Source of the DNA: Promethearchaeota archaeon
GTDB taxonomy: Archaea > Asgardarchaeota > Odinarchaeia > Odinarchaeales > JBHLKK01
Assembly: GCA_048939465.1 (NCBI GenBank)
Contig: JBHLPL010000056.1
Location: 1 to 12,492, forward strand
Length of the DNA stretch: 12,492 nucleotides
Direction: 5' to 3'
Made by a program: the position numbers and the translations under genes. Under the pieces are notes generated by a model. The model made no database searches. It was given only the letters and a program-made list of their open reading frames with translations, and was not told the origin of the DNA. How positions within the stretch are numbered: the stretch's first letter is position 1; the number at the start of each line of letters is the position of its first letter. This document shows positions 283 to 12,492 of this stretch, one piece after another.

Positions 283-966
283 ATGAGTAGGGAAAGGCTC
301 CGTCGTGAAATCAAACGTAAACGGAAGAGGAAATATCTGCCGAAGCTGGATCTCAGCCTACTGAGGAAAGTAATTACCCTACTAGATGGCTATCGAATAA
401 ACCGATTCATGGATCCTGTAAGAATCGGAGATCTAGTGAAGTCAGGTGCAGCGGGAGAAGAGCTTCAGAAAGAGTGGGACGAGCTTTACCAGGTCATGTA
501 TGACATGTCCCGTATCCCGGCAAACACACCCAAGGCCCTCAAACTGCTAAAACGTCTTAGTCTAACAGAGAAGTTGAGCATAGTCAACATTGCTGTTACT
601 GCTCTTTTGCTTGCACTCAGCTTCGTTGTCGGGTTTTCGTGGCTCGTCGGCGTTGTTTTTGCAACAATAGCGTTTCCAGCAACGATCGGGGCTAGAGTCT
701 ATCTATATCGTCAGGTCTCTGATGAGATTGACGGATATATTGAGGAGCATCCCGAGAAGTTTGCCAAGAGAAAAGCACGGCTGAAACAACAGGTTCAAAG
801 ATCTATAGGGATTTTGAACAAATATGTAAGACAGTTTGAAAGAGAACCTGCGAACTATCCGTTTGAATTATACAATACAGATTATAGCGGGATTAGCGTC
901 ACGAAAAAACCAGGAACCATAAGAAAAGGATATGTAGTCATACCCAAAATAGGCAAATCACAATAG
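283..966 (+). CDS. Hypothetical membrane protein (two-helix TM hairpin, polybasic N-terminus)
   Basis: 227-aa ORF filling the gap between the flanking genes, with an SD-like GGGGG upstream. Hydrophobic segments at aa ~98-118 and ~120-142; N-terminus RERLRREIKRKRKRK. No family recognised. Confidence 0.75.
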   Translation: MSRERLRREIKRKRKRKYLPKLDLSLLRKVITLLDGYRINRFMDPVRIGDLVKSGAAGEELQKEWDELYQVMYDMSRIPANTPKALKLLKRLSLTEKLSIVNIAVTALLLALSFVVGFSWLVGVVFATIAFPATIGARVYLYRQVSDEIDGYIEEHPEKFAKRKARLKQQVQRSIGILNKYVRQFEREPANYPFELYNTDYSGISVTKKPGTIRKGYVVIPKIGKSQ

Positions 967-975
967 ATGAATCGA

Positions 976-2565
976 TTAGATAGGAGGTACTTCTCCGTAG
1001 AGCTTACTTACCGACATACCTTCTTTTTGGTTTTTCCAAGCATACATAGAAAAGACCAGCATTGCCATTCCGATTAAACCCCCACCTATGGCTATAGAAA
1101 GCACGTTAGCTGTCAGCATCGTGAAGAATGTCATAAAGAAACCAGGTAAGCATATGGTAAGAACTCCAAGAATCGACATCACCGGGAAACCCTTCACTGT
1201 ATGGCTGAAACCACTTCTCCAGACAGCTGGTTTGGAGAATGGCAAAACAAGACTTGTGAGCCCTTGAAGGAAATGAGCCATACCGCTTAAGGCAATCGTT
1301 TCTAGGGCTGTTGCAATAAGTCCTGCATAGGCATATAGAAAAATGGTTCCAATAGCAGAAACCCCTATCACAATGGAAGCAACATATGGGCTATGTGTCC
1401 TCTCACTGATCTTGGTGAGGCGTTCGGGCAAGAATCGGTCAAAGGACATGGAGAATAGCAGTCTAGTCATGCCAGGAAGCATGGCTGGAAAGAATGCCAG
1501 AGTCCATATTGCTGGTCCCAAGGCGAGTATAAACTGCAGAACTGGGTTTGCCGTAAGAGATAGCGCAAATATGGTGGCTACCGGATAAACAGAAGGGTTT
1601 GTTACCGTCGGTATCTCTCCAAACATAACGTAGGAATACATTGACACGAACTCCCCATATCGGGAAAGAAGCAGTGCTGCAAACCCAATATAAATCGCAG
1701 TAATGATTCCTATGCCTCCTACGAAACCGACGGAAAAGCTCTTCTTTGGTACCTTAATCTCACTTCCGAAGAAACTTAGTGCCGTTCCACCAAGGTAGAG
1801 AAAATACGAACTTCTCATGGCGTCCAAGGTCGCATCGAAGCTGAAGGACGTTGGCATCCACCCTGCAGCTGTGGCAGTATCTACGATTTCTTGATAAGCT
1901 CCGCTACCCCAAACCGAATCCCATAGCGACGGAACCGAATCGGGATGAGTTAAGCCCAGTACAGCAAACAATAGTATGCTGAATATCATGGTAATTGCAA
2001 AAAACCCGTAGTTCACCCATTTCATGGGCCTAGGTCCTAGCGCATTAATCGTTACGAACAGTAATACAAATACTACCGCCACAATCAACTGAAAGATGTT
2101 GATCTCAGGATAGGACATGAGAACCAGTGCTGGCTCAATCAAAGAAGGAATCAGCGATACACCTATTATGAGCAAGCAATATCCCAGAACGATCGGTATG
2201 AACACCGCAAGACTACCAAGCAAGATCAGTGAGATAGATAGCGAGCCAAATCCATTGAATACGTAACCAACAGCAGGATTCACGCAGCGAGAAACCCATG
2301 TGTAATCCCCGCCTGATCTAGGCATTGCGACTGACAAGAAAAGACCATTCAGCATGAAAATGGCAGCTGGTATGGCACCCATCGCCAGTGCCAGTATCAG
2401 ATCAGCTCCTGTGTTTTCCGCAAGGATCGCCGGTATAATAAGAAATATCCACGGCCCTATGACTAGGTTTAGCGGATAACTGAGGGCAAATAGTGATCCT
2501 AATTCTCTTCTTAGACCTGTTGCCCGTCTAACGAATAACTTCGGAAATTCTTCCTCAGCCATCAT
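976..2565 (-). CDS. APC-superfamily amino acid/polyamine permease
   Basis: ~530 aa, almost wholly hydrophobic with ~12 or more TM segments. N-terminal FVRRATGLRRELG is typical of archaeal APC permeases; also PRSGGDYTWVSR, GSEIKVP and RLLFSMSFDRFLP. Start is one of TTG2568/ATG2565/ATG2562. Confidence 0.88.
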   Translation of the reverse strand: MMAEEEFPKLFVRRATGLRRELGSLFALSYPLNLVIGPWIFLIIPAILAENTGADLILALAMGAIPAAIFMLNGLFLSVAMPRSGGDYTWVSRCVNPAVGYVFNGFGSLSISLILLGSLAVFIPIVLGYCLLIIGVSLIPSLIEPALVLMSYPEINIFQLIVAVVFVLLFVTINALGPRPMKWVNYGFFAITMIFSILLFAVLGLTHPDSVPSLWDSVWGSGAYQEIVDTATAAGWMPTSFSFDATLDAMRSSYFLYLGGTALSFFGSEIKVPKKSFSVGFVGGIGIITAIYIGFAALLLSRYGEFVSMYSYVMFGEIPTVTNPSVYPVATIFALSLTANPVLQFILALGPAIWTLAFFPAMLPGMTRLLFSMSFDRFLPERLTKISERTHSPYVASIVIGVSAIGTIFLYAYAGLIATALETIALSGMAHFLQGLTSLVLPFSKPAVWRSGFSHTVKGFPVMSILGVLTICLPGFFMTFFTMLTANVLSIAIGGGLIGMAMLVFSMYAWKNQKEGMSVSKLYGEVPPI

Positions 2566-2592
2566 CAATCGCCTGAGAAATACGGCTAGCTG

Positions 2593-2621: not shown

Positions 2622-3170
2622 TCAGTAGTCCACTCCTTCCCTTGGTCCGATCCCTCGGGAGAAGACATGCTTTACCTGCCTCATGTAGGTAACGATATCT
2701 CCAGCTCTGACTATTTGACTAGGGGCGTATCTTCCGGTCAAGATCAATTCAACTTTTTTGGGCTTTTTCTCGATCAGATCGAGTACTTCTTCTATCTTAA
2801 AAAGCCCGAAATCTAACGCTACATTTATTTCATCGAGTATAACAATATCCCACTTTTCGCTCATGACAACTTCTCTTGAATAATCAAAAGCCTTGCGTGC
2901 CTGCTCAACATCTGTGTCTGATTTCTCTTCAGGATTAACAAAATCTAGTGTTCCAAACCGTTTTACTTCGAGATTTGGCAAGTATTTCGAGGCCTTGACC
3001 TCTCCATATTCATATTCTCCCTTTAAGTATTGAATTATGTTAACTGAATATCCGTGACCTATCGCGCGCATTGCGAGGCCAAACGCCGTAGTAGTCTTCC
3101 CCTTGCCGTCGCCTGTATAAACGTGCACAAACCCCTCTTTTAGCCGCTTTTCTGATCTTGGTTGCCTCAT
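2622..3170 (-). CDS. cobO: Cob(I)yrinic acid a,c-diamide / cob(I)alamin adenosyltransferase, CobA/CobO/BtuR type
   Basis: HVYTGDGKGKTTTAFGLAMRAIGHG, IQYLKG, WDIVILDEIN, ELILTGR and REGVDY are family motifs. ATGA overlap with the meaB stop. Confidence 0.93.
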   Translation of the reverse strand: MRQPRSEKRLKEGFVHVYTGDGKGKTTTAFGLAMRAIGHGYSVNIIQYLKGEYEYGEVKASKYLPNLEVKRFGTLDFVNPEEKSDTDVEQARKAFDYSREVVMSEKWDIVILDEINVALDFGLFKIEEVLDLIEKKPKKVELILTGRYAPSQIVRAGDIVTYMRQVKHVFSRGIGPREGVDY

Positions 3171-4120
3171 TTCAAGTACTCCCTCAAAATAATGTCTGCT
3201 GCTTGATACGGACCCATCTTCTTTTGGACCATTTTTCTGACAAGATCCTCAAATAGGGGGCTCTCATTTGCTTTCTTGAGAGCCTCATTCTCGATTTTGG
3301 CCCTTAAGGTTTCTATTAATTCTGCGGCCGCCCTCTTCTTACTCAGTGCTTTCAAATCCATGGTCTCCAGGAATCTCTGATGTTCTTCGATTTTGTCGAG
3401 AAGTTGATCGATACCTGTATTCTCGGTGGATGATGTGGTTATTACTGGTGGCACCCAGCCTTCTTTGCTCTCAATTAATCCCTCATAGTCCAGCATCCTT
3501 TCGAGTTCATAGGCGGTTTCCGCTGCCCCCGGCTTATCGGATTTGTTGACAACAAATATATCCGCAATCTCCATTGCTCCTGCTTTCATGGCCTGGATTT
3601 CGTCTCCCAGCCCCGGGCACAACACCAAAACGACGGTGTGGGCCACCTGCATTATCGCTACTTCAGATTGTCCAGCGCCTACTGTTTCCACAATTACTAT
3701 ATCCTTTCCAGAAGCGTCTAGGATATTGACCGCATCTCTCGTAGCTCTGGCAAGCCCCCCTAAGGAACCCCGAGTGGCCATGCTACGGATGAAAATACCA
3801 TCAACGCCGACAATGTCTCTCATCCGGACTCTGTCACCTAGAAGGGCCCCACCACTGTACGGACTGGATGGATCTACTGCTATTATTCCAATAGTCTTGC
3901 TTCTTTCTCTCCATCTCAGGGCTAACTTATTGACCAGACTGCTCTTTCCACTTCCCGGAGGACCCGTTATGCCAACTGTGTGACTTCTTCCTGTATGCGG
4001 ATAAATTATCTGGCTGATTTCTTCTGCCTTCAAGAAATCATTCTCAATGAGACTTATCAGACGTGAAATGCTGGAGACATCCCCTTTATACAAACCCTCT
4101 GCAAGTTTTTGAAGGTCCAT
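3167..4120 (-). CDS. meaB: Acyl-CoA mutase-associated GTPase MeaB (ArgK/MMAA family)
   Basis: GITGPPGSGKSSL P-loop, AVDPSSPYSGGALLGDRVRM, FIRSMATRG, VETVGAGQSE, NKSD. ATG directly follows the stop of the B12-binding subunit (TAAATG). Confidence 0.95.
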   Translation of the reverse strand: MDLQKLAEGLYKGDVSSISRLISLIENDFLKAEEISQIIYPHTGRSHTVGITGPPGSGKSSLVNKLALRWRERSKTIGIIAVDPSSPYSGGALLGDRVRMRDIVGVDGIFIRSMATRGSLGGLARATRDAVNILDASGKDIVIVETVGAGQSEVAIMQVAHTVVLVLCPGLGDEIQAMKAGAMEIADIFVVNKSDKPGAAETAYELERMLDYEGLIESKEGWVPPVITTSSTENTGIDQLLDKIEEHQRFLETMDLKALSKKRAAAELIETLRAKIENEALKKANESPLFEDLVRKMVQKKMGPYQAADIILREYLK

Positions 4121-4537
4121 TTACTTTTCCTCTAACGACATTCTCTCCTTGCTCACGTTTTCTCTTATGAACTTGATTGCTTTCTTAAGTGGTGTGCCGG
4201 GTCCAAAAAGCTCCCTAATTCCATTTTGCCTCAAGAATGGATGGTCTTCATTGGGGATTATGCCTCCAGCAATGACTAGTACGTCGGTAATCCCCCTTTT
4301 CTCCAAGATTCGCGTAACGGTGGGGAGTAATATTCTGTGGGCTCCGCTTAGTATGCTTAGACCAATGACATCTGCGTCTTCGTGAATCGCTGCGTCTACG
4401 ATCTGATCCGGGGTCTGTTTCAGTCCAGTATAAACCACTTCCATTCCAGCGTCTCTCAAAGTTCTGCAGACTACCTTTGCACCCCTATCATGCCCATCCA
4501 AGCCCGGTTTTGCGATTAAGACTTTTATTCGTTTCAA
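4121..4537 (-). CDS. icmB: Acyl-CoA mutase small (cobalamin-binding) subunit
   Basis: KPGLDGHDRGAKVV (DxHxxG base-off/His-on motif), IGLSILSGAH, GGIIP. TTG start with GGGGAGG SD overlapping the large-subunit stop. Symbol follows the large-subunit specificity call; standard pipelines would annotate it as a methylmalonyl-CoA mutase C-terminal domain. Confidence 0.93.
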   Translation of the reverse strand: MKRIKVLIAKPGLDGHDRGAKVVCRTLRDAGMEVVYTGLKQTPDQIVDAAIHEDADVIGLSILSGAHRILLPTVTRILEKRGITDVLVIAGGIIPNEDHPFLRQNGIRELFGPGTPLKKAIKFIRENVSKERMSLEEK

Positions 4538-4547
4538 TTCCCTCCCC

Positions 4548-6209
4548 TCAGAAAATCAGTAATTCCTTATGTTCACCATAGACCTCTTTTAGAGAATTTA
4601 TTATCTCGCCTAATGAAGCGTAGACTTCAACACAATTCAAAACGTAAGGCATGATGTTCTCATCTCTTCTTGCAGCTTTCTTGAGTTCAGCTAGATGCTT
4701 TGATACTTTTTCTTTGTTCCTACTTTCTTTTATTTGCTTCAATCCTTCTACTTGTACTCTCTCGACCTCAGGATCAACCTTGAAGCGAGGTATTCTAACC
4801 TCTTCGCTCTCGTCCCCAAATCGATTTACTCCGACTATGATTTGTTTCTTTTTATCCACATTCTTTTGAAATTCGTAGGCGCTATTTGAGATCTCTCTTT
4901 GGGGATACCCCCTCTTTATAGCCTCAATCATACCGCCCATGCTATCGATTCGATCGATGTATTTCATTGCCTCCTCCTCCATTTTGTCTGTGAGCCATTC
5001 CACATAGTAGCTTCCAGCCAGTGGATCGATTGTCTCGGTTACTCCGCTTTCATGGGCGAGCATTTGCTGTGTTCTAAGTGCGATTGTAACGGCCTTTTCA
5101 GAAGGAAGCTGCCAGGCCTCATCATAACTGTTGGTATGAAGGCTTTGCGTCCCTCCAAGCACCGCTGCCAACGCTTGAATGGCCACCCGTACAATGTTGT
5201 TCTCGGGCTGTTGAGCAGTGAGCGCCACTCCACTTGTCTGTGTGTGGAAACGCATCCATAGACTCCTGTCCTTCTTTGCTCCAAAACGCTCCTTCATGAA
5301 CCTTGCCCACATTCTTCTGGCCGCTCTGAATTTTGCTATTTCCTCAAAGAAGTCATTATGGGAACAGAAGAACAGGGATAACCTTTGCGCAAAGCTGTCT
5401 ATGTTCAATCCTCTCTCGATCGTCTTTCCGACGTACATTAGTCCGTCTGAAAGAGTAAAAGCAAGTTCCTGTACGGCCGTGGCTCCCGCCTCCCTGATGT
5501 GATATCCACTAATGCTTACAGGATTCCACCTAGGAACACTCCTTGTGCAGAACTCAATGACATCAATGACCAGTTTAACTGAAGGCTCCGGTGGAAAAAT
5601 AAAGGATTTCTGCGCAATGAACTCTTTCAGTGCGTCATTCTGGACCGTTCCGCCGACGTTGTCCCAAGAGACATTTTGCTTTTTGGCGACTGTTAGATAC
5701 ATAGCAAGCAAGATAGGTGCCGGAGCATTAATTGTCATGGACGTCGTAATCTTATCAAGAGGAATACCGTCAAAAAGCATTTCCATGTCTTTTAATGAAT
5801 CAATAGCTACGCCACAGACTCCAACTTCGCCTGAGGACAGTGGATCATCTGAATCGTATCCCTCTATCGTCGGGAAGTCAAATGCGACGCTCAGTCCTGT
5901 CTCGCCTTCTGAAAGCAAATACTTATATCTCTGGTTTGTCTGTTCTGCTGTTCCGAATCCAGAGAATTGTCGCATTGTCCAAAGACGTTCACGATACATG
6001 GTTTTGTGAATACCTCGTGTAAACGGGTATTTTCCTGGGAATCCCAAATCCTCTTCATGGCTAAGATGCTCAATGTCTGCCGGAGTGTAAAGCAGCTTTA
6101 TTGGAATGTCGGAGGAATTCTTCTTTTCTGGAATCCTCTTCAGGTACTTCTCTCGCCATTCCTCCTCTCGCTTCCTGATATTCTTAACAGAATTAGAATC
6201 GAACACCAC
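4548..6209 (-). CDS. icmA: B12-dependent acyl-CoA mutase large (substrate-binding) subunit, isobutyryl-CoA-mutase-type active site
   Basis: YPFTRGI, WTMRQFSGFG, GLSVAFDFPT, TVQNDALKEFIAQKS, ISGYHIREAG, RFHTQTSG, LGGTQSLHTNSYDEA. Likely start is GTG 6209 or 6206 with SD GGGGG at 6220-6216; the ORF-track TTG 6242 lies about at the predicted TSS. Family assignment is ~0.97 certain, ICM specificity ~0.75. Confidence 0.9.
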   Translation of the reverse strand: MVFDSNSVKNIRKREEEWREKYLKRIPEKKNSSDIPIKLLYTPADIEHLSHEEDLGFPGKYPFTRGIHKTMYRERLWTMRQFSGFGTAEQTNQRYKYLLSEGETGLSVAFDFPTIEGYDSDDPLSSGEVGVCGVAIDSLKDMEMLFDGIPLDKITTSMTINAPAPILLAMYLTVAKKQNVSWDNVGGTVQNDALKEFIAQKSFIFPPEPSVKLVIDVIEFCTRSVPRWNPVSISGYHIREAGATAVQELAFTLSDGLMYVGKTIERGLNIDSFAQRLSLFFCSHNDFFEEIAKFRAARRMWARFMKERFGAKKDRSLWMRFHTQTSGVALTAQQPENNIVRVAIQALAAVLGGTQSLHTNSYDEAWQLPSEKAVTIALRTQQMLAHESGVTETIDPLAGSYYVEWLTDKMEEEAMKYIDRIDSMGGMIEAIKRGYPQREISNSAYEFQKNVDKKKQIIVGVNRFGDESEEVRIPRFKVDPEVERVQVEGLKQIKESRNKEKVSKHLAELKKAARRDENIMPYVLNCVEVYASLGEIINSLKEVYGEHKELLIF

Positions 6210-6262
6210 ACCATTCCCCCATAATTGGCCTGAGTATATCAATCTAGAGGTAAACGATCCAC

Positions 6263-6280
6263 TTATTTAAAGATTTTTTA
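6263..6280 (-). promoter_or_regulatory. BRE + TATA promoter of the mutase operon
   Basis: Minus strand reads TAAAAAATC-TTTAAATAA: an A-rich BRE followed by a TTTAAATA box, ~55 nt upstream of the probable start. Confidence 0.6.
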
Positions 6281-6281
6281 C

Positions 6282-6304
6282 ATTCTGGCATGGGCTGGCA
6301 GAAT
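6282..6304. repeat. Imperfect inverted repeat immediately upstream of the BRE
   Basis: ATTCTGgCAtgggcTGgCAGAAT: arms ATTCTG/CAGAAT pair perfectly, with an inner CA/TG pair. It also contains CTGGCA twice. Confidence 0.55.
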
Positions 6305-6306
6305 CG

Positions 6307-6325
6307 TTAAAAAATAAGGAGGAAA
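6307..6325 (-). terminator. Putative oligo(T) terminator of the acyl-CoA ligase gene
   Basis: Minus strand TTTCCTCCTTATTTTTTAA, ~15-35 nt after the ligase TAA. Archaeal terminators are pyrimidine/T tracts. Confidence 0.45.
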
Positions 6326-6341
6326 TGAGTTGTCGGATGTG

Positions 6342-8027
6342 TTACTTCGATGGAATAGCCTTCCTAACTTCTTCGTCTCTAAGCTCTCTACGGAGAACTT
6401 TGCCAACAAGTGTCTGCGGAAGTGCGTCTCTGAACTCAAGTTCCTTGATATGCTTGTGTTTGGCTATCTTCTTATTAACGAAGTCCATGATTTCTTTTTC
6501 AGTTGCTGTAGCCCCTTCCTTCAACACACAAAATGCTTTGGGTATCTCCCCCTCTACAGGATCCGGCTTGCCTATAACTGCACACAGCTTCACGGCGGGG
6601 TGTTCGTATGCTATATCTTCAAGCTCTCTTGGAAAAACGCTGTAACCCTTATGCTTGATTAGGTCCTTCGCTCTTTCCACGATGTAGAAATAACCATCCT
6701 CGTCCACCTTTGCTAGATCGCCTGTATAAAGCCAGCCTTTTCTAAGTGCTCTCTTGGTTTCTTCAGGAAGCTTCCAGTAACCCTTCATCACTTGTGGTCC
6801 TTTTACTGCTAGTTCCCCCACCTCTCCTGGCGGAAGTTCCTTCTTTCCAGTTTCAGCATCCATAATCTTAGCTTCTGTATCCGGAAAAGCAAGCCCAATC
6901 GACCCTATTTTCACCGTTTTCAGCGTCGGGTCAAGCGGGTTGCAGTGCGTAACCGGTGAGGCTTCGGTAAGACCGTAACCCTCTACCAGTGCCCCCCCTG
7001 TTAATTTCATGAATGCCTTTTGGACTTCAGGAGGAAGCGCCCCTGCGCCGGAAAGGCAGAATTTTATGGAGGAAAGATCAAATTTCGTGGTCTCCGGTCG
7101 TGCCACCAGGATAGCGTACATTGTGGGAACCCCACACCATATCGTTACCTTGTTCTTCTCGATTTCCTCAAGAACATCAGCAACACCGAATTTTGGAATA
7201 AGAACCATAGTGCCTGCTTGAGAAACAGCGTCATTCATTGAAGTCGTCATGCCAAATATATGGAAAAGCGGAAGGGCGGTAAGGAATGTTTCTTCTGCTT
7301 CCTTTGAACCTGCAAGCCATTTTGTGCAAGCAATGGCGTTAGAAACAAGGTTATAGTGAGTGAGCATTGTCCCTTTTGGTGTCCCTGTTGTTCCCCCAGT
7401 ATATTGCAGTATCGCTAGGTCTTCCTTGGGATCGATTTTCACCTTTTTAGGTTCGGGTGGATACTTGCTTATTAGCTCCTTGAAGAAGTAAATCCCCGCT
7501 TCTTTCTCAACTTTCTTTCCCGGGATTTTTCGCAGTAGCTTGCCAAAAATCCTCTTTCCTGTCGATAGATAATCTGCGAATTTTGCAACTATGATGTTCT
7601 TCAGCTTTGCTTCATCTTTGACACTCTTGATTACAGACTCGAATAGATCAAGAACTACTATCGTCTTCGCTCCTGAATTCTTGATTTGAAAAGCTGCTTC
7701 TCTTTCCTTAAGCAAAGGGCTTACGGCGGTAACTATCGCTCCCGCCCTCATAGCACCGTAATAGCCTATGATGAACTGAGGCACATTCGGAAGCATTAAT
7801 CCAACTACGTCTCCCTTTTTGACGCCCAAGTCCTGTAAAGCTGTGGCAAACCTGCTCGCGTGCTCATCGAGTTCTTGATAGCTTATCTTATTACCTTTGA
7901 ATATTACTGCTGTCTTTGTGGGATGTCTATCGGCAGTATTCTTTAGCATTTCTGAAAGTGTTATCTCTGGATATTTGATTGAAATTGGGACCCCCGCGGG
8001 CCAAAACTTCGATTTAGCTTTCCCCAT
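6342..8027 (-). CDS. fadD: Long-chain-fatty-acid--CoA ligase (FadD-like, ANL superfamily)
   Basis: ILQYTGGTTGTPKG (AMP-binding signature), LPLFHIFG, EGYGLTEASP, WLYTGDLA, C-terminal GKVLRR. ATG 8027 with GAGGTG SD upstream. Confidence 0.93.
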   Translation of the reverse strand: MGKAKSKFWPAGVPISIKYPEITLSEMLKNTADRHPTKTAVIFKGNKISYQELDEHASRFATALQDLGVKKGDVVGLMLPNVPQFIIGYYGAMRAGAIVTAVSPLLKEREAAFQIKNSGAKTIVVLDLFESVIKSVKDEAKLKNIIVAKFADYLSTGKRIFGKLLRKIPGKKVEKEAGIYFFKELISKYPPEPKKVKIDPKEDLAILQYTGGTTGTPKGTMLTHYNLVSNAIACTKWLAGSKEAEETFLTALPLFHIFGMTTSMNDAVSQAGTMVLIPKFGVADVLEEIEKNKVTIWCGVPTMYAILVARPETTKFDLSSIKFCLSGAGALPPEVQKAFMKLTGGALVEGYGLTEASPVTHCNPLDPTLKTVKIGSIGLAFPDTEAKIMDAETGKKELPPGEVGELAVKGPQVMKGYWKLPEETKRALRKGWLYTGDLAKVDEDGYFYIVERAKDLIKHKGYSVFPRELEDIAYEHPAVKLCAVIGKPDPVEGEIPKAFCVLKEGATATEKEIMDFVNKKIAKHKHIKELEFRDALPQTLVGKVLRRELRDEEVRKAIPSK

Positions 8028-8077
8028 TTAAGCACCTCTCAACATAGAGATTTGGCTGAACATATGCCCAGTGGAAA

Positions 8078-8092
8078 TATATAAATATAAAA
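8078..8092 (-). promoter_or_regulatory. Putative TATA region for fadD
   Basis: Minus strand TTTTATATTTATATA, 50-65 nt upstream of ATG 8027, within the divergent intergenic region. Confidence 0.45.
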
Positions 8093-8120
8093 CTAATAAC
8101 TGCCATTTTTAGAGGAAAGA

Positions 8121-8221
8121 TTCTGACACTAATTCATTCTTCGTGTTTTTTCTTTCCTTTCTCATGCTCATTTATCAACAATAGCTTTAAGTTTGAAACA
8201 GTGAATTAAGTGCCATCAGAA
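8121..8221. repeat. Long-range imperfect inverted repeat in the divergent fadD/hydrolase intergenic region
   Basis: Left arm TTCTGACACTAATTCA (8121-8136) pairs with right arm TGAATTAaGTGccaTCAGAA (8202-8221): 16 bp with one 1-nt and one 3-nt bulge. Confidence 0.4.
8179..8192 (+). promoter_or_regulatory. Putative TATA box for the alpha/beta hydrolase
   Basis: CAATAG-CTTTAAGT, ~55 nt upstream of ATG 8248. It resembles the AAAG-CTTTTAAG element before the dehydrogenase gene. Confidence 0.4.
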
Positions 8222-8247
8222 CTGAGACTAGATGAGACCTGAAGGTC

Positions 8248-9072
8248 ATGGCTTTGAAAATCGAAGAAGTGAGTTTCCAGTCTCATGACGCAAGAATCGC
8301 TGGCCTTCTCTACATCCCAGATTCAGCACCGTCAGCGGGTTTAGTATTCTGTCATGGAATGAGCAAATGGGGATTCAGAAAAAGCAGCCTATACAGAAGG
8401 TTTATGGAAAATGCATGCAGAAGTGGCTATGCGTCTCTAATTTTCGATTTCAGAGGTTCTGGAAACTCCTCAGGATCCTTTGACTATGGTTTTAAGGAAC
8501 GCTTAGACGTCAAAGCAGCAATTAAGTACTTGTCTTCTCGAGAAGAAGTCATTTCTGATAAGATATTTGTAGTTGGGCATAGTCTGGGAGGGATAATGGC
8601 TGCCTACGCAGTAAGGAACGAAACCACGGTCAAAGGATTAGCTCTATGGTCAACACCTCCGAAGGAATATTACACTATTAAGAATTTTATTATAAATCAA
8701 AGGGGTGCGTTGGGCTATGTCGGTTTTGTTCTTCTGTCGTATCTAGACAGAGTTATTCATCTGGAAAACGCCGATATGAAGATCTTTGGCATCCCACTAA
8801 GACTCAGACTTGTCCGCAAAAAATTCATGACCCTTAGCGCAGATGAAGTGTTGTCAATCATGCCGCCTAAACCTACACTCGTTGTAATTGGCGATAGTGA
8901 TGAGTATGTTACTCTAAGAGAGGCGAGAATCCTTTATTCCTGCATTAAAGGAACAAGGAAATTCGTTGCCCTTCCTCAGACTAATCACTCTTTTGAAAAT
9001 AGAGAAAAAGAGGTAATTGACAAGACATTAGCATGGTTCAACAGGTTCCGAAATGATTCTACGGTAGAGTGA
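8248..9072 (+). CDS. Alpha/beta-fold serine hydrolase (esterase/thioesterase/peptidase-like)
   Basis: LVFCHG oxyanion motif, FDFRGSGNS, GHSLGG nucleophile elbow, GDSDEYV (Asp) and NHSF (His) complete the triad. Confidence 0.88.
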   Translation: MALKIEEVSFQSHDARIAGLLYIPDSAPSAGLVFCHGMSKWGFRKSSLYRRFMENACRSGYASLIFDFRGSGNSSGSFDYGFKERLDVKAAIKYLSSREEVISDKIFVVGHSLGGIMAAYAVRNETTVKGLALWSTPPKEYYTIKNFIINQRGALGYVGFVLLSYLDRVIHLENADMKIFGIPLRLRLVRKKFMTLSADEVLSIMPPKPTLVVIGDSDEYVTLREARILYSCIKGTRKFVALPQTNHSFENREKEVIDKTLAWFNRFRNDSTVE

Positions 9073-9097
9073 TGCGATCTTGCTTTTCTTTCGATGA
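9073..9097 (+). terminator. Possible T-rich terminator between the convergent hydrolase and hydratase genes
   Basis: CTTGCTTTTCTTTC directly after the hydrolase TGA. Confidence 0.3.
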
Positions 9098-9886
9098 TTA
9101 CTCACCTTTGAATTCTGGCTCGCTTTTTGACATGAAGGACGAAATGCCTTCTACGACATCTTTGGTAGCCCGGAGAAGCCCAAAAGCCTCCGACTCGACC
9201 ATGAGTCCAATATTCAAAGGCACCTGAGTGGCCAGATTCAACAGCCTTTTTGCGTATTTCAGAGCTATTGGTGGTCCCGAAGCTAATTTCTTGGCCAGGA
9301 CTTTTGTCTGTTCCATCAGGTTCTCTGAGCGTACAACCTTGTTAACCAGCCCTACTCTCAAAGCCTCATCAGCACCAATTTGCTCTCCAAGCATCACCAG
9401 TTCTTTGGCCTTGGCGAGTCCGCATATTCTTACTAACCTCTGCGTGCCCCCCCATCCGGGTATCAGACCCAGCTTTATCTCCGGATTTCCAAAAGTTGCA
9501 TGTTCTGCAGCTATCCTGAAATCACAGGCCAGTGATAACTCCAGTCCTCCGCCAAGACAATATCCGTTTATTGCTGCGATATACGGTTTACTTGATTTTT
9601 CGATTTTTCCGAATATATCTTGACCTGTGGCGGACCCCTCCTCTGCAGTAATCGCAGTTAGGGTTGGAAATACGGTTACGTCTGCCCCCGAGCTGAAAGA
9701 CCTTTCTCCTGCCCCGGTGATTACAACCACTTTCGTTTCTTTGTCCTGCTCAGCTTTCTCAATAGTGGCCAGGAATGCTTCAGCCATGTCTACTGAGATT
9801 GCATTTAATCTGTGTGGCCTGTTGAGTGTTATCCAGCCAATTCCTCCCTCGCTCTTATACGTAACAGCTTCTTCCTTTTTAGCCAT
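9098..9886 (-). CDS. crt: Enoyl-CoA hydratase (crotonase); possibly the frameshift-separated C-terminal half of a HADH-ECH fusion
   Basis: WITLNRPHRLNAI, FSSGADV, GGGLELSLACD and FGNPEIKLGLIPGWGGTQRL (both catalytic Glu present). ATG 9886 overlaps the end of the dehydrogenase ORF. Confidence 0.9.
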   Translation of the reverse strand: MAKKEEAVTYKSEGGIGWITLNRPHRLNAISVDMAEAFLATIEKAEQDKETKVVVITGAGERSFSSGADVTVFPTLTAITAEEGSATGQDIFGKIEKSSKPYIAAINGYCLGGGLELSLACDFRIAAEHATFGNPEIKLGLIPGWGGTQRLVRICGLAKAKELVMLGEQIGADEALRVGLVNKVVRSENLMEQTKVLAKKLASGPPIALKYAKRLLNLATQVPLNIGLMVESEAFGLLRATKDVVEGISSFMSKSEPEFKGE

Positions 9887-11060
9887 ATTCGTAGAACCCC
9901 CTTCCAGTCTTTTGTCCAAGTCGATTATCTTTCAGATATTCTTCTAGCAATGGGCACGGCTTGTACATTTCCTCCTTGTGTTTTTCGTATAGTTCATTCA
10001 ACTTGTTAACAACTAAATCTAGACCGATGTCGTCGCCAAGTTCACAAGGACCAGACGGCCAACCTGTACCAAACTTCATTGCTTTATCTATGTCTGCAGG
10101 ATCTGCTACATCTTCATGAATCAGAAAAGCAGCCTCATTGACCGATACAGCGTAAATCCTATCAATATCAAACTTGTCTGCAATATCAAAAGGTATTCGC
10201 GGTCTGCCAGAACTCCAATCATAGAAGCCCTGTTTGGTCTTTTGTCCCAATTTTCCGCTTTCAACCAGTGGAATTATTATCGGGCATAGTTTGACTCTTT
10301 CCCCATATGCGCCTTCCATAATCTTCCCAACTTCGTATGCGATGTCTAACCCGACGTAATCTGCAAGTTCAAATGCACCCATCGGAATTCCTGCTTGATA
10401 TTTGACTGCTGCATCCACTTCTTCTTTTGTCGCTTCGTTCCTGTAGACTGCCCAAAAGGCTTCATTGAAAACAACACCCAAGATTCTATTCACAATGAAG
10501 CCAATAACGTCTTTTCGTACCACAACTACTTCCTTTTTGAGTTTTTCTGCCAGCTCGACGGTTGTTTTTATTGTCTCGTCACTGGTCTGCTCTCCTTTGA
10601 TTACCTCAACAAGAGGCATCATCGCCGGCGGATTGAAGAAATGCATCCCAACAACTTTATCCTTTCTTTCGGTGGCTTTACCCATGTCTGTTATTCTTAG
10701 ACTCGAGGTATTGCTGGCTATAATCGCATGCTTTGGTGCTGCCCTATCGACGTCAGAAAAGACCCTCTTCTTGAGTTCTAGTTTTTCAGGAACTGCCTCA
10801 ATAACAAAATCCGCATCTTTAACGGCTTCCTCCAAGTTTGTGGTGGTCTTTATTCTTGAAATGGCAGCATCAGCATCTTCTTGTCTTATCCTGCGCTTTT
10901 CAACAAACTTCCCAAGGCTCCATTTGATTTGTTCCATTCCCTTCTGCAAAAACTCATCCTTTACGTCCATCATGATAACACTGTATCCTGCCACGCCTAA
11001 TATTTGAGCTATACCGTGTCCCATCGCTCCCGCTCCTATGGTAGCAACTCTTTTTACCAA
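9879..11060 (-). CDS. hbd: 3-hydroxyacyl-CoA dehydrogenase (NAD-binding domain plus duplicated C-terminal domain)
   Basis: IGAGAMGHGIA Rossmann motif, IEAVPE, ASNTSS, GMHFFNPP (catalytic His), GFIVNR, two LGxKTxxGFYxY/W repeats. TTG start with GGTGA SD 6 nt upstream. Confidence 0.92.
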   Translation of the reverse strand: MVKRVATIGAGAMGHGIAQILGVAGYSVIMMDVKDEFLQKGMEQIKWSLGKFVEKRRIRQEDADAAISRIKTTTNLEEAVKDADFVIEAVPEKLELKKRVFSDVDRAAPKHAIIASNTSSLRITDMGKATERKDKVVGMHFFNPPAMMPLVEVIKGEQTSDETIKTTVELAEKLKKEVVVVRKDVIGFIVNRILGVVFNEAFWAVYRNEATKEEVDAAVKYQAGIPMGAFELADYVGLDIAYEVGKIMEGAYGERVKLCPIIIPLVESGKLGQKTKQGFYDWSSGRPRIPFDIADKFDIDRIYAVSVNEAAFLIHEDVADPADIDKAMKFGTGWPSGPCELGDDIGLDLVVNKLNELYEKHKEEMYKPCPLLEEYLKDNRLGQKTGRGFYEYG

Positions 11061-11096
11061 TGTCTTTCACCAGTCTCGAAATATTCAACTTAGAAC

Positions 11097-11110
11097 CTTA
11101 AAAGCTTTCA
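11097..11110 (-). promoter_or_regulatory. Putative internal BRE/TATA promoter for hbd-crt
   Basis: Minus strand TGAAAG-CTTTTAAG, ~37-44 nt upstream of TTG 11060, in the 58-nt gap after the DUF35 gene. Confidence 0.45.
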
Positions 11111-11118
11111 TATACAGT

Positions 11119-11556
11119 TTATTCTTCAGATCTTATTGGGATGAATTCATATGTGGCACCCTCAGGGGTGAGTTTACCCTGTAACTTAACCTTCATCCCG
11201 ACTTTAGTTTCTGAGAACTTGGCTCCTGTTAACCACGCCAGTACCCTCACTCCATCTTCGAGTCTTGCTATGGCAACAGTATATGGTCGATGCCGTTGAA
11301 ATGAAGTGGGCTTAACCATGATGTGTGTGAATGCCTCAACTTCCCCCTCACCGCTCAATTCAACCCATTCTACATCGGATGATAAGCATTCACCACAATC
11401 CGCAACAGGCGGAAAATACAGTTTTCCGCACTTCTTGCATTTGGTTGTATATATTTTCCCTTCCTTGAGCCCTTCCCAGAACTTCAGGGTTTTGCTTATC
11501 GGTATTGCAAACACCAAATTCAACGGTCTTGAATCAATAGTTGGCATACCCTTCAA
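11119..11556 (-). CDS. DUF35 Zn-ribbon + OB-fold protein (thiolase partner / acyl-CoA-binding scaffold)
   Basis: KFWEGLKEGK, CKKCG...FPP...CGEC Zn ribbon, WVELSGEGEVEAFT, PYTVAIARLEDG, GMKV. Start is TTG 11556 (GAGGTGA SD 5 nt upstream) or GTG 11565 overlapping the thiolase stop. Confidence 0.92.
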   Translation of the reverse strand: MKGMPTIDSRPLNLVFAIPISKTLKFWEGLKEGKIYTTKCKKCGKLYFPPVADCGECLSSDVEWVELSGEGEVEAFTHIMVKPTSFQRHRPYTVAIARLEDGVRVLAWLTGAKFSETKVGMKVKLQGKLTPEGATYEFIPIRSEE

Positions 11557-11561
11557 GATAA

Positions 11562-12491
11562 TCACCTCTTTAGTATCGTTACGTAGCAGTAATGCCCAGT
11601 ACCACCAACATTATGGGCTAGTGCAATGTAATTCTTCAGTGGCACTTGTCTCTCTCGTTTCACTGCCTCTTCTCTTAGTTGTTTTGTGAGTTCGTATATC
11701 ATGCCACAACCTGTCGCACCAATCGGATGACCTTTGGCCTTTAAGCCGCCATCGACATTGACCGGGATTCTGCCTCCTATCTCGGTTTCTCCTTCCCTAA
11801 TTAGCTTTGCACCCTCTCCCCTCTTGCAGAAGCCTAAGTCCTCATAAGCCATTATTTCTGCTATCGTAAAGCAGTCATGAACGCATGCAACATCCGGATC
11901 GTCCGGGCCAATCTTTGCCATTTTGTAAGCCATCTTTCCTGCTTTAACGGCTGCTGGAAGGCCTACAAAATTCGGTCTCCTACTTAGATTCGCGGTACCT
12001 GAAGAGTAACCTGTGCCTGATATCCAAACTGGAGTATCTATCTTCAGTTCTTTTACCTTGTCTTCGGAAGCCAAAACCACTGCAGAAGCACCATCTGACA
12101 CTGGACAGCTGTCATAAAGCTTAATTGGCCAAGCTATCACATGAGATCCTAGCGCTTCTTCAATAGTAACTTCTTTCTGAAGTTGAGCGACAGGATTCAA
12201 TGCTGCATATTTGTGATTCTTGACAGCCACTCTCGCTAAGTCTTCTTCTGTGGTTCCATACTTATTCATATGGGCAACCGCATACAGAGCGTAATATGCT
12301 GGAAAGGTCATCCCGAAGTTTTGAAACTCCCATAAATAGTATCCTGCTCTTCCTATTATCTCAATAGTCGTAGGCATATCCGTTTCTCTCATTTTCTCTA
12401 GTCCGATTGCCGCTGCGATGTCAAATTGGCCACTTGCTATGCCAGAATAAGCTGTAAAGACAGCTGCACTGCCTGTAGCACAGGCTGCCTC
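11562..12491 (-). CDS. Acetyl-CoA C-acyltransferase (archaeal/SCP2-type thiolase), 5' truncated by window edge
   Basis: The frame stays open upstream of the ORF-track ATG 12392 to the window end. My translation is EAACATGSAAVFTAYSGIASGQFDIAAAIGLEKM, with the catalytic Cys at 12482-12480. Further motifs: HDCFT, GHPIGATG, HNVGG. Confidence 0.93.
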   Translation of the reverse strand, partial: EAACATGSAAVFTAYSGIASGQFDIAAAIGLEKMRETDMPTTIEIIGRAGYYLWEFQNFGMTFPAYYALYAVAHMNKYGTTEEDLARVAVKNHKYAALNPVAQLQKEVTIEEALGSHVIAWPIKLYDSCPVSDGASAVVLASEDKVKELKIDTPVWISGTGYSSGTANLSRRPNFVGLPAAVKAGKMAYKMAKIGPDDPDVACVHDCFTIAEIMAYEDLGFCKRGEGAKLIREGETEIGGRIPVNVDGGLKAKGHPIGATGCGMIYELTKQLREEAVKRERQVPLKNYIALAHNVGGTGHYCYVTILKR

Positions 12492-12492
12492 A

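Follow-up and report, generated by a model that had tools for sequence, protein, structure and literature searches.

An isobutyryl-CoA mutase-type operon beside a putative C4 beta-oxidation module in an Asgard archaeal genome

The stretch of DNA analysed here (the window, 12,492 nucleotides) is the whole of contig JBHLPL010000056.1 from assembly GCA_048939465.1, a Promethearchaeota archaeon of the Odinarchaeales, and it carries the genes of a putative B12-dependent acyl-CoA mutase next to genes of beta-oxidation. Our analysis indicates that this mutase, which is of the isobutyryl-CoA mutase (ICM) type, probably links isobutyryl-CoA to butyryl-CoA and that the neighbouring, putatively C4-type module links butyryl-CoA to acetyl-CoA. 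The window (C107 in our numbering) belongs to a genome of 1.96 Mb in 152 contigs, estimated to be 91% complete. The original prediction, made from the sequence of the window, had proposed an archaeal branched-chain acid degradation system composed of an acyl-CoA ligase, an ICM-type mutase with its loading factors, a crotonase, a 3-hydroxyacyl-CoA dehydrogenase (HADH), plus a thiolase with its DUF35 partner; Pfam and NCBIfam profile searches of the window proteins recovered every one of these genes, all on the minus strand. The archaeal host that it had supposed can now be placed among the Asgard archaea, and the mutase has its nearest relatives in metagenome-assembled genomes (MAGs) titled Candidatus Hodarchaeota, Promethearchaeota, Baldrarchaeota, Heimdallarchaeota and Jordarchaeales.

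Results

Mutase operon and specificity residues

The mutase operon comprises four genes that overlap by 4 bases or are separated by gaps of 0-10 bases:

2622..3170, minus strand: CobA/BtuR-type ATP:cob(I)alamin adenosyltransferase (PF02572, E 1e-59; TIGR00708, 178 bits, cut-off 168)
3167..4120, minus strand: MeaB G-protein chaperone of B12 acyl-CoA mutases (TIGR00750, 337 bits, cut-off 241; PF03308, E 5e-86)
4121..4537, minus strand: B12-binding small subunit, IcmB-like, 138 aa (PF02310, E 7e-24; TIGR00640, 177 bits, cut-off 57)
4548..6242, minus strand: acyl-CoA mutase large subunit, IcmA-like, 564 aa (PF01642, E 3e-225)

The cobA and meaB genes share the 4-base overlap, the P-loops of CobA (GDGKGKTT) and MeaB (GPPGSGKSS) are intact, and the DxHxxG motif of the small subunit is present as DGHDRG (residues 14-19, encoded at 4481-4498). 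Because relatives of the large subunit are 552 aa long, its true start is likely the GTG at 6206. The genome holds this one mutase only, to which the CobA-type protein is predicted to supply adenosylcobalamin.

Substrate choice in this family is decided at the positions of Tyr89 and Arg207 of methylmalonyl-CoA mutase (MCM) and of Asp117 of 2-hydroxyisobutyryl-CoA mutase (HCM). Tyr89 and Arg207 of MCM bind the carboxylate of the substrate. Residues were read from alignments to the chains of MCM (1REQ/5REQ, 2XIJ), HCM and IcmF (4XC6), and their codons were checked. The window enzyme has Phe93 (codon 5964-5966) where MCM has Tyr and HCM has Ile, Gln211 (codon 5610-5612) where MCM has Arg and HCM has Gln, and Ala120 (codon 5883-5885) where MCM has Ala and HCM has Asp. 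Phe also stands at the Tyr89 position in the 5REQ chain, the Y89F mutant of MCM. In IcmF the homologous motifs hold Phe (TRMFAGEG) and Gln (KEDQGQNT), as in the window, and the SGYH motif is kept at residues 245-248 of the large subunit. Phe93 and Gln211 agree with the ICM-type mutase that had been claimed, and, on sequence grounds, we assign the large subunit to the isobutyryl-CoA mutase type, with isobutyryl-CoA/butyryl-CoA interconversion as its best-supported function.

Streptomyces cinnamonensis IcmA/IcmB (EC 5.4.99.13), like the window, pairs a separate large subunit of ~560 aa with a B12 subunit of ~138 aa and is adenosylcobalamin-dependent, and in IcmA, too, the specificity positions hold Phe and Gln at a spacing of 118 residues (Phe80 and Gln198). 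The window differs in its Asgard host and in subunit genes that are adjacent and co-operonic with meaB and cobA. IcmF shares the Phe/Gln motifs and needs the same G-protein function, but it unites B12 domain, G-protein and barrel in one chain of ~1100 aa, whereas the window divides them among three separate genes, and with scores of 354, 142 and 54 bits against NF045497 (cut-off 1500) identity with the fused enzyme was set aside. HcmAB has the split architecture of the window, and its structure 4R3U is the best-scoring solved structure for the large subunit (E 5e-165); its pocket residues Ile90 and Asp117 are replaced by Phe93 and Ala120, so that a hydroxyacyl substrate is not expected and we rejected HCM identity. 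MCM (Propionibacterium shermanii 1REQ, human 2XIJ) resembles the window in fold, in the catalytic SGYH motif and in the MeaB/MMAA chaperone system, but the Tyr/Arg pair is replaced by Phe/Gln, and neither of its partner genes, methylmalonyl-CoA epimerase (TIGR03081) and carboxyltransferase (PF01039), was found in the 91%-complete genome; a true MCM was rejected on these grounds.

Distribution of the Phe/Gln class

The 120 best database homologs are mostly archaeal; every source names them methylmalonyl-CoA mutase or a generic mutase, and 118 of them carry Phe/Ala/Gln at the three positions. Across 80 genome loci, 73 are Phe/Ala/Gln and seven Tyr/Ala/Arg. A FastTree phylogeny of 123 sequences, calculated with no characterised stand-alone IcmA among them, unites 94 Phe/Ala/Gln sequences, the window protein included, in one clade (support 99) that is separate from most Tyr/Arg sequences. 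Both paralogs occur together in 12 of 40 Asgard relatives. Of the 18 genomes that have a Tyr/Arg copy, 14 contain an epimerase that scores over cut-off, and in 11 of these it lies no more than ~3 kb from the Tyr/Arg gene; of nine genomes with a Phe/Gln copy alone, one contains such an epimerase. Since the genomes are kin and non-independent, these counts are a pattern and not a statistic. Residues, homolog classes, tree, paralogs, epimerase pattern and the single mutase of the genome, taken together, make a methylmalonyl-CoA function of the window enzyme very unlikely.

Two further kinds of mutase came to light in Asgard genomes. A third clade, ~43% identical to the window enzyme and on a long branch (L136-L139: G040:C1:3243189-3244742, G031:C526, G033:C83 and G023:C286), has Phe/Ala together with Thr, Phe or Tyr at the Arg207 position, a pocket unlike that of any characterised mutase. 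An IcmF-like fused mutase of ~1150 aa, which scores 1373 bits against PDB 4XC6, is present in two genomes of one genus (L140:315-3770 in G019:C3, and L141 in G038:C222).

Beta-oxidation genes in the window and beyond it

Upstream of the mutase operon lie the following genes:

6342..8027, minus strand: AMP-forming acyl-CoA ligase, FadD/4-coumarate-ligase (4CL) class (PF00501 and PF13193)
8248..9072, plus strand: alpha/beta-fold carboxylesterase-like hydrolase (PF00561/PF12146)
9098..9919, minus strand: crotonase, an enoyl-CoA hydratase (PF00378, E 2e-65)
9879..11060, minus strand: HADH, Hbd-like, 393 aa (PF02737 and two PF00725 stretches)
11119..11565, minus strand: DUF35 protein (zinc-ribbon and OB-fold), thiolase partner (PF12172 and PF01796)
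11562..12492, minus strand: SCP-x-type thiolase, truncated (PF22691 and PF00108; PRK12578, 493 bits, cut-off 485)

The crotonase, whose likely start is the ATG at 9886, matches best the short-chain enoyl-CoA hydratase model PRK05809 (274 bits, under the equivalog cut-off of 394), and the dehydrogenase, in which the C-terminal domain is duplicated, matches best the 3-hydroxybutyryl-CoA dehydrogenase model PRK05808 (378 bits, under the equivalog cut-off of 408). The DUF35 and thiolase genes overlap by 4 bases. The thiolase is truncated because the window ends at the contig end; it aligns from position 81 of the PRK12578 profile and so lacks ~80 N-terminal residues, and a full-length ortholog (391 aa, 91% identity) lies on contig G001:C102 of the same genus. 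The best NCBIfam models for the ligase are long-chain ligases, all under cut-off, and its nearest structures are 4CL and Archaeoglobus fulgidus FadD-1 (3g7s); those of the hydrolase are esterases, MHETase-like enzymes and monoacylglycerol lipases. A mevalonate-pathway identity for the thiolase/DUF35 pair was rejected, as HMGCS is found elsewhere in the genome, in an HMGCS-thiolase-144-aa-ORF operon on contig C63, and the same-genus thiolase is preceded by an acyl-CoA dehydrogenase (ACAD) and not by HMGCS.

The ACAD and electron-transfer flavoprotein (ETF) that the original prediction had missed in the window and sought past position 12,492 are at hand: the genome encodes five ACADs and three ETF pairs, and contig C67 holds one of these dehydrogenases, ACAD5, with two ETF beta/alpha pairs. 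The absence of any ACAD from the genome, which the original prediction had named as grounds for its own rejection, is thus not what the genome shows. The same-genus contig G001:C102, which carries the ACAD5 ortholog, two small ORFs, the thiolase, DUF35 and the start of HADH, aligns at 88% to C67 and at 86% to the window end, and because it bridges both, we place C67 beside the window; judged from these alignments, C67 very probably abuts the window end with ~140 bases missing. The short-chain beta-oxidation gene set is complete with this addition, as thiolase, HADH and crotonase are in the window and ACAD and ETF on C67. One C67 EtfA carries an N-terminal double [4Fe-4S] domain, and near structural relatives of ACAD5 include CarC and Bcd of bifurcating ETF complexes. 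Neither the neighbours of the other four ACADs nor those of the ETF pair on contig C122 gave a beta-oxidation context. Between ACAD and thiolase, G001:C102 has ~540 extra bases with two small unannotated ORFs (L256:1219-1961), and part of this insert is 79% identical to contig C116:2098-2439 of the window's own genome.

Conservation and linkage of the cluster

The order HADH-crotonase-(hydrolase)-ligase-large subunit-small subunit-MeaB-CobA-permease is kept in both other genomes of the genus, with protein identities of 79-92%, and this recurrence in two other genomes indicates that the arrangement is not due to chance. Beyond the genus the synteny is lost: 17 other Asgard loci show the mutase core only (the large subunit, in most cases accompanied by the small subunit and by MeaB or CobA). 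The conservation that the original prediction had proposed to check thus holds for the full cluster within the genus and does not extend past it. The gene identities, the Phe/Gln signature, the separation of the paralog from true MCM and this extended gene order are direct observations.

Elsewhere, the Phe/Gln mutase operon of a Baldrarchaeota MAG is accompanied by an adjacent ACAD and ligase, and in a MAG titled Thermoproteota Kor1 a ligase directly follows cobA and DUF35-HADH lies 8 kb upstream; each of these two ligases is the reciprocal-best ortholog of that in the window. An ACAD is found directly upstream of the Phe/Gln large subunit at no fewer than nine bacterial loci, some with CobA between; ETF genes stand ahead of the ACAD in seven of these at least nine loci, and at L066 and L091 two ACADs are found instead. 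Such flanking of Phe/Gln mutases by ACAD and ETF genes is spread over several phyla of bacteria.

A scan of metagenome contigs centred on the ligase yielded 80 loci, many of which read ETFb-ETFa-ACAD-HADH-ACAD-crotonase-thiolase-DUF35-(opposite-strand hydrolase)-ligase; in 27 of the 80 the two are neighbours, with the hydrolase on the strand opposite to the ligase. Outside the genus, the named homologs nearest to the ligase all come from Bathyarchaeia, at 62-67% identity, and the best match in the 40 Asgard relatives reaches 53-54%. We accordingly read the window as joining two modules, a beta-oxidation module that is closest to Bathyarchaeia and usually stands alone, and an Asgard-type ICM operon. 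Three Asgard genomes, of two families, hold full-length ligase matches with one in-frame TAG each (G036:C145:1001-2635, G030:C9:101389-103032 and G039:C111:27888-29525); an MttB-family gene lies on contig C135 of the window's own genome.

Gene spacing points to at least three transcription units: beside the tight packing of the mutase operon, the ligase and the hydrolase diverge across 220 bases, and 99 bases separate ligase and mutase. The plus-strand hydrolase at 8248-9072 interrupts the minus-strand row between ligase and crotonase. Downstream of the mutase operon are two further genes:

976..2568, minus strand: APC-family amino-acid permease (PF00324/PF13520, E 7e-17)
283-966, plus strand: ORF of 227 aa with no Pfam or NCBIfam match

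The permease begins 53 bases downstream of cobA, keeps this position in both same-genus genomes and may be the gene that closes the mutase operon; its match to the branched-chain amino-acid transporter BcaP is partial, weak and far under cut-off, and it may take part in the system. The ORF, convergent with the permease, is likewise found at an equal position in both same-genus genomes, at ~78% identity. An Rfam scan of the window returned no RNA element.

Discussion

We propose that valine, imported as amino acid or peptide, would be converted via 2-oxoisovalerate to isobutyryl-CoA by a 2-oxoacid:ferredoxin oxidoreductase. A two-subunit, adenosylcobalamin-dependent mutase with an IcmA-like barrel and an IcmB-like B12 domain, encoded within 2622-6242 and helped by the MeaB GTPase and CobA, would then interconvert isobutyryl-CoA and n-butyryl-CoA by moving the thioester group in a radical 1,2-shift, and the ACAD/ETF, crotonase, Hbd-like dehydrogenase and thiolase/DUF35 would take butyryl-CoA on to two acetyl-CoA, from which an ADP-forming acyl-CoA synthetase (ACD) would gain ATP. 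The genome encodes five 2-oxoacid:ferredoxin oxidoreductases, two of them POR/VOR-like, and one ACD subunit. From the genes and their arrangement we infer what the substrate is, how the two modules are coupled, where isobutyryl-CoA comes from and which way the flux runs, and we regard catabolic use as most likely. Isobutyryl-CoA derived from amino acids is the likelier feed, because an AMP-forming ligase would cancel the ATP gain from free isobutyrate. The same reaction set, an ICM joined to C4 beta-oxidation, makes up the clostridial/syntrophic butyrate-isobutyrate pathway (Thl, Hbd, Crt, Bcd/EtfAB), and ICM genes have been reported in Syntrophothermus and Syntrophomonas BUT1 (PMC6687939). 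Unlike that pathway, the window has an SCP-x thiolase with DUF35, an AMP-forming ligase and not a CoA transferase, and an esterase in the module.

Several observations weigh against this proposal. The mutase is absent from all 80 ligase-centred metagenome loci, so that its co-location with beta-oxidation in the window may be accidental, and at the three Asgard loci scanned outside the genus the Phe/Gln operons are flanked by unrelated housekeeping genes. A single dedicated branched-chain-acid system, as first predicted, is not supported by these comparisons, given a cluster confined to one genus and a ligase module that is mutase-free in 80 of 80 loci. The assignment of the enzyme itself rests on two residues and context, since the tree had no stand-alone IcmA as reference, and two Tyr/Ala/Arg sequences, L107 (G019:C18) and L116 (G038:C61), are nested in the Phe/Ala/Gln clade, which may reflect either reversion to MCM-type residues or an artefact of placement. 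These two sequences share a long branch (0.45, support 83). At the contig join, we looked for an exact overlap between C67 and the window end and found none, so the junction is drawn from the relative, and the first ~200 bases of C67 (G000:C67:1-200) do not align to G001:C102. The same bases are G+C-rich. This contig end may be chimeric. On the metabolic side, a net ATP gain from free isobutyrate with an AMP-forming ligase is, by our own reckoning, unlikely, and an EtfA fused to a ferredoxin domain suits the reductive direction equally well.

The first of these points would be explained if two independent modules merely adjoined, a general fatty-acid beta-oxidation set, perhaps acquired from a Bathyarchaeia-like lineage, and a separate ICM-type operon, with a ligase that serves medium- or long-chain acids and not isobutyrate. 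The recurrence of the beta-oxidation set in dozens of metagenome loci, none with a mutase, fits this explanation, as do the greater likeness of the ligase to Bathyarchaeia (62-67%) than to its best Asgard match (53-54%), its FadD/4CL class, the esterase as its conserved partner and the unrelated neighbours of the other Asgard operons. We nevertheless judge it unlikely: reciprocal-best orthologs of this very ligase adjoin Phe/Gln mutases in the Baldrarchaeota and Kor1 MAGs, ACAD and ETF genes occur on the flanks of such mutases in bacteria of several phyla, three genomes of the genus retain the arrangement, and the mutase yields butyryl-CoA, precisely the compound that the neighbouring module takes as its substrate.

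The coupled route could also run in reverse, from acetyl-CoA to butyryl-CoA, a reduction that would serve as an electron sink through an ACAD/ETF complex, and on to isobutyryl-CoA, which would be excreted as isobutyrate or reductively carboxylated to 2-oxoisovalerate for valine synthesis. All steps of the route are reversible, and the double [4Fe-4S] domain of EtfA and the nearness of ACAD5 to CarC and Bcd are compatible with reduction. IlvD was not found in any of the three genomes of the window's genus, each of which has the mutase cluster, and is present in all four genomes of a sister family of the same order (genomes G000-G006 together), none of which has the mutase; this contrast fits either auxotrophy or valine synthesis from isobutyryl-CoA. 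Isobutyrate-producing clostridia with an ICM have been described (PMC7764203). An AMP-forming ligase and an adjacent amino-acid permease, however, are more in keeping with uptake and activation than with excretion, the contrast in IlvD compares two lineages only, and auxotrophy accounts for it equally well, so that we hold net flux in this direction to be quite improbable.

A mutase acting on another non-carboxylated acyl-CoA (isovaleryl/pivalyl-CoA, a C5 branched/straight pair or a hydroxyacyl-CoA) seems highly improbable. The best solved structure is an HCM (4r3u), further Asgard clades have altered pockets, and IcmF is reported to have a side activity on isovaleryl/pivalyl-CoA (Cracan and Banerjee 2012, cited in PMC6759758); set against this are the missing Ile/Asp of HCM, a Phe/Gln pair equal to that of IcmF, and neighbours that score best against C4-type Crt and Hbd models.

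That the enzyme is a true MCM, or rearranges skeletons in an alkylsuccinate or alkyl-CoM alkane pathway, we regard as next to negligible: the database labels on the window protein and its 120 best homologs favour it, as does a proposal for Hermodarchaeota in which ligase, 'MCM' and carboxyltransferase together process alkylsuccinate (PMC8163825), but the carboxylate-binding Tyr and Arg are replaced, relatives have Tyr/Arg paralogs with an adjacent epimerase, and searches of the 91%-complete genome found no epimerase, no McrA (PF02249) and no carboxyltransferase, which the proposed alkylsuccinate route needs. The alkane-skeleton rearrangement that the original prediction had entertained was dropped for these reasons, together with the lack of any Ass/Bss-type enzyme, as the sole glycyl-radical enzyme of the genome is of the PFL2/glycerol-dehydratase family. 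That enzyme (G000:C27:4169-7413; L257) scores 914 bits against TIGR01774, and the gene after it encodes its activase; among equivalog models it comes nearest to hydroxyproline dehydratase and choline lyase, under cut-off in both cases.

The finding concerns a known kind of enzyme in a new host, where it stands with a complete C4-type pathway in an arrangement peculiar to the genus, and not a new enzyme or system. A review of 2010 described ICM as 'only known from bacteria' (PMC2847961), and our literature search for ICM in archaea, Asgard or other, turned up only an annotation label in Cuniculiplasma. Its value is mainly that of an annotation correction, useful for metabolic maps of Asgard archaea, in which reading this gene as propionate or succinate metabolism, in reconstructions of Asgard and other sediment archaea, would assign the wrong pathway. 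It also offers a checkable rule, by which the mutase family is split according to two residues and linkage to the epimerase.

For the window's genus, the genes predict a complete set from valine or isobutyrate to acetyl-CoA. More broadly, we tentatively suggest, as a possibility that falls short of being probable, that valine, and perhaps also free isobutyrate, is degraded in some Asgard archaea via isobutyryl-CoA and butyryl-CoA to two acetyl-CoA, and that the 'methylmalonyl-CoA mutase' on maps of Asgard, Bathyarchaeia and Thermoplasmata is often this enzyme. If so, propionate pathways inferred from the misnamed mutase would be wrong, and these organisms would bypass the methacrylyl-CoA/propionyl-CoA route and double the substrate-level ATP per valine, by a route undescribed for archaea.

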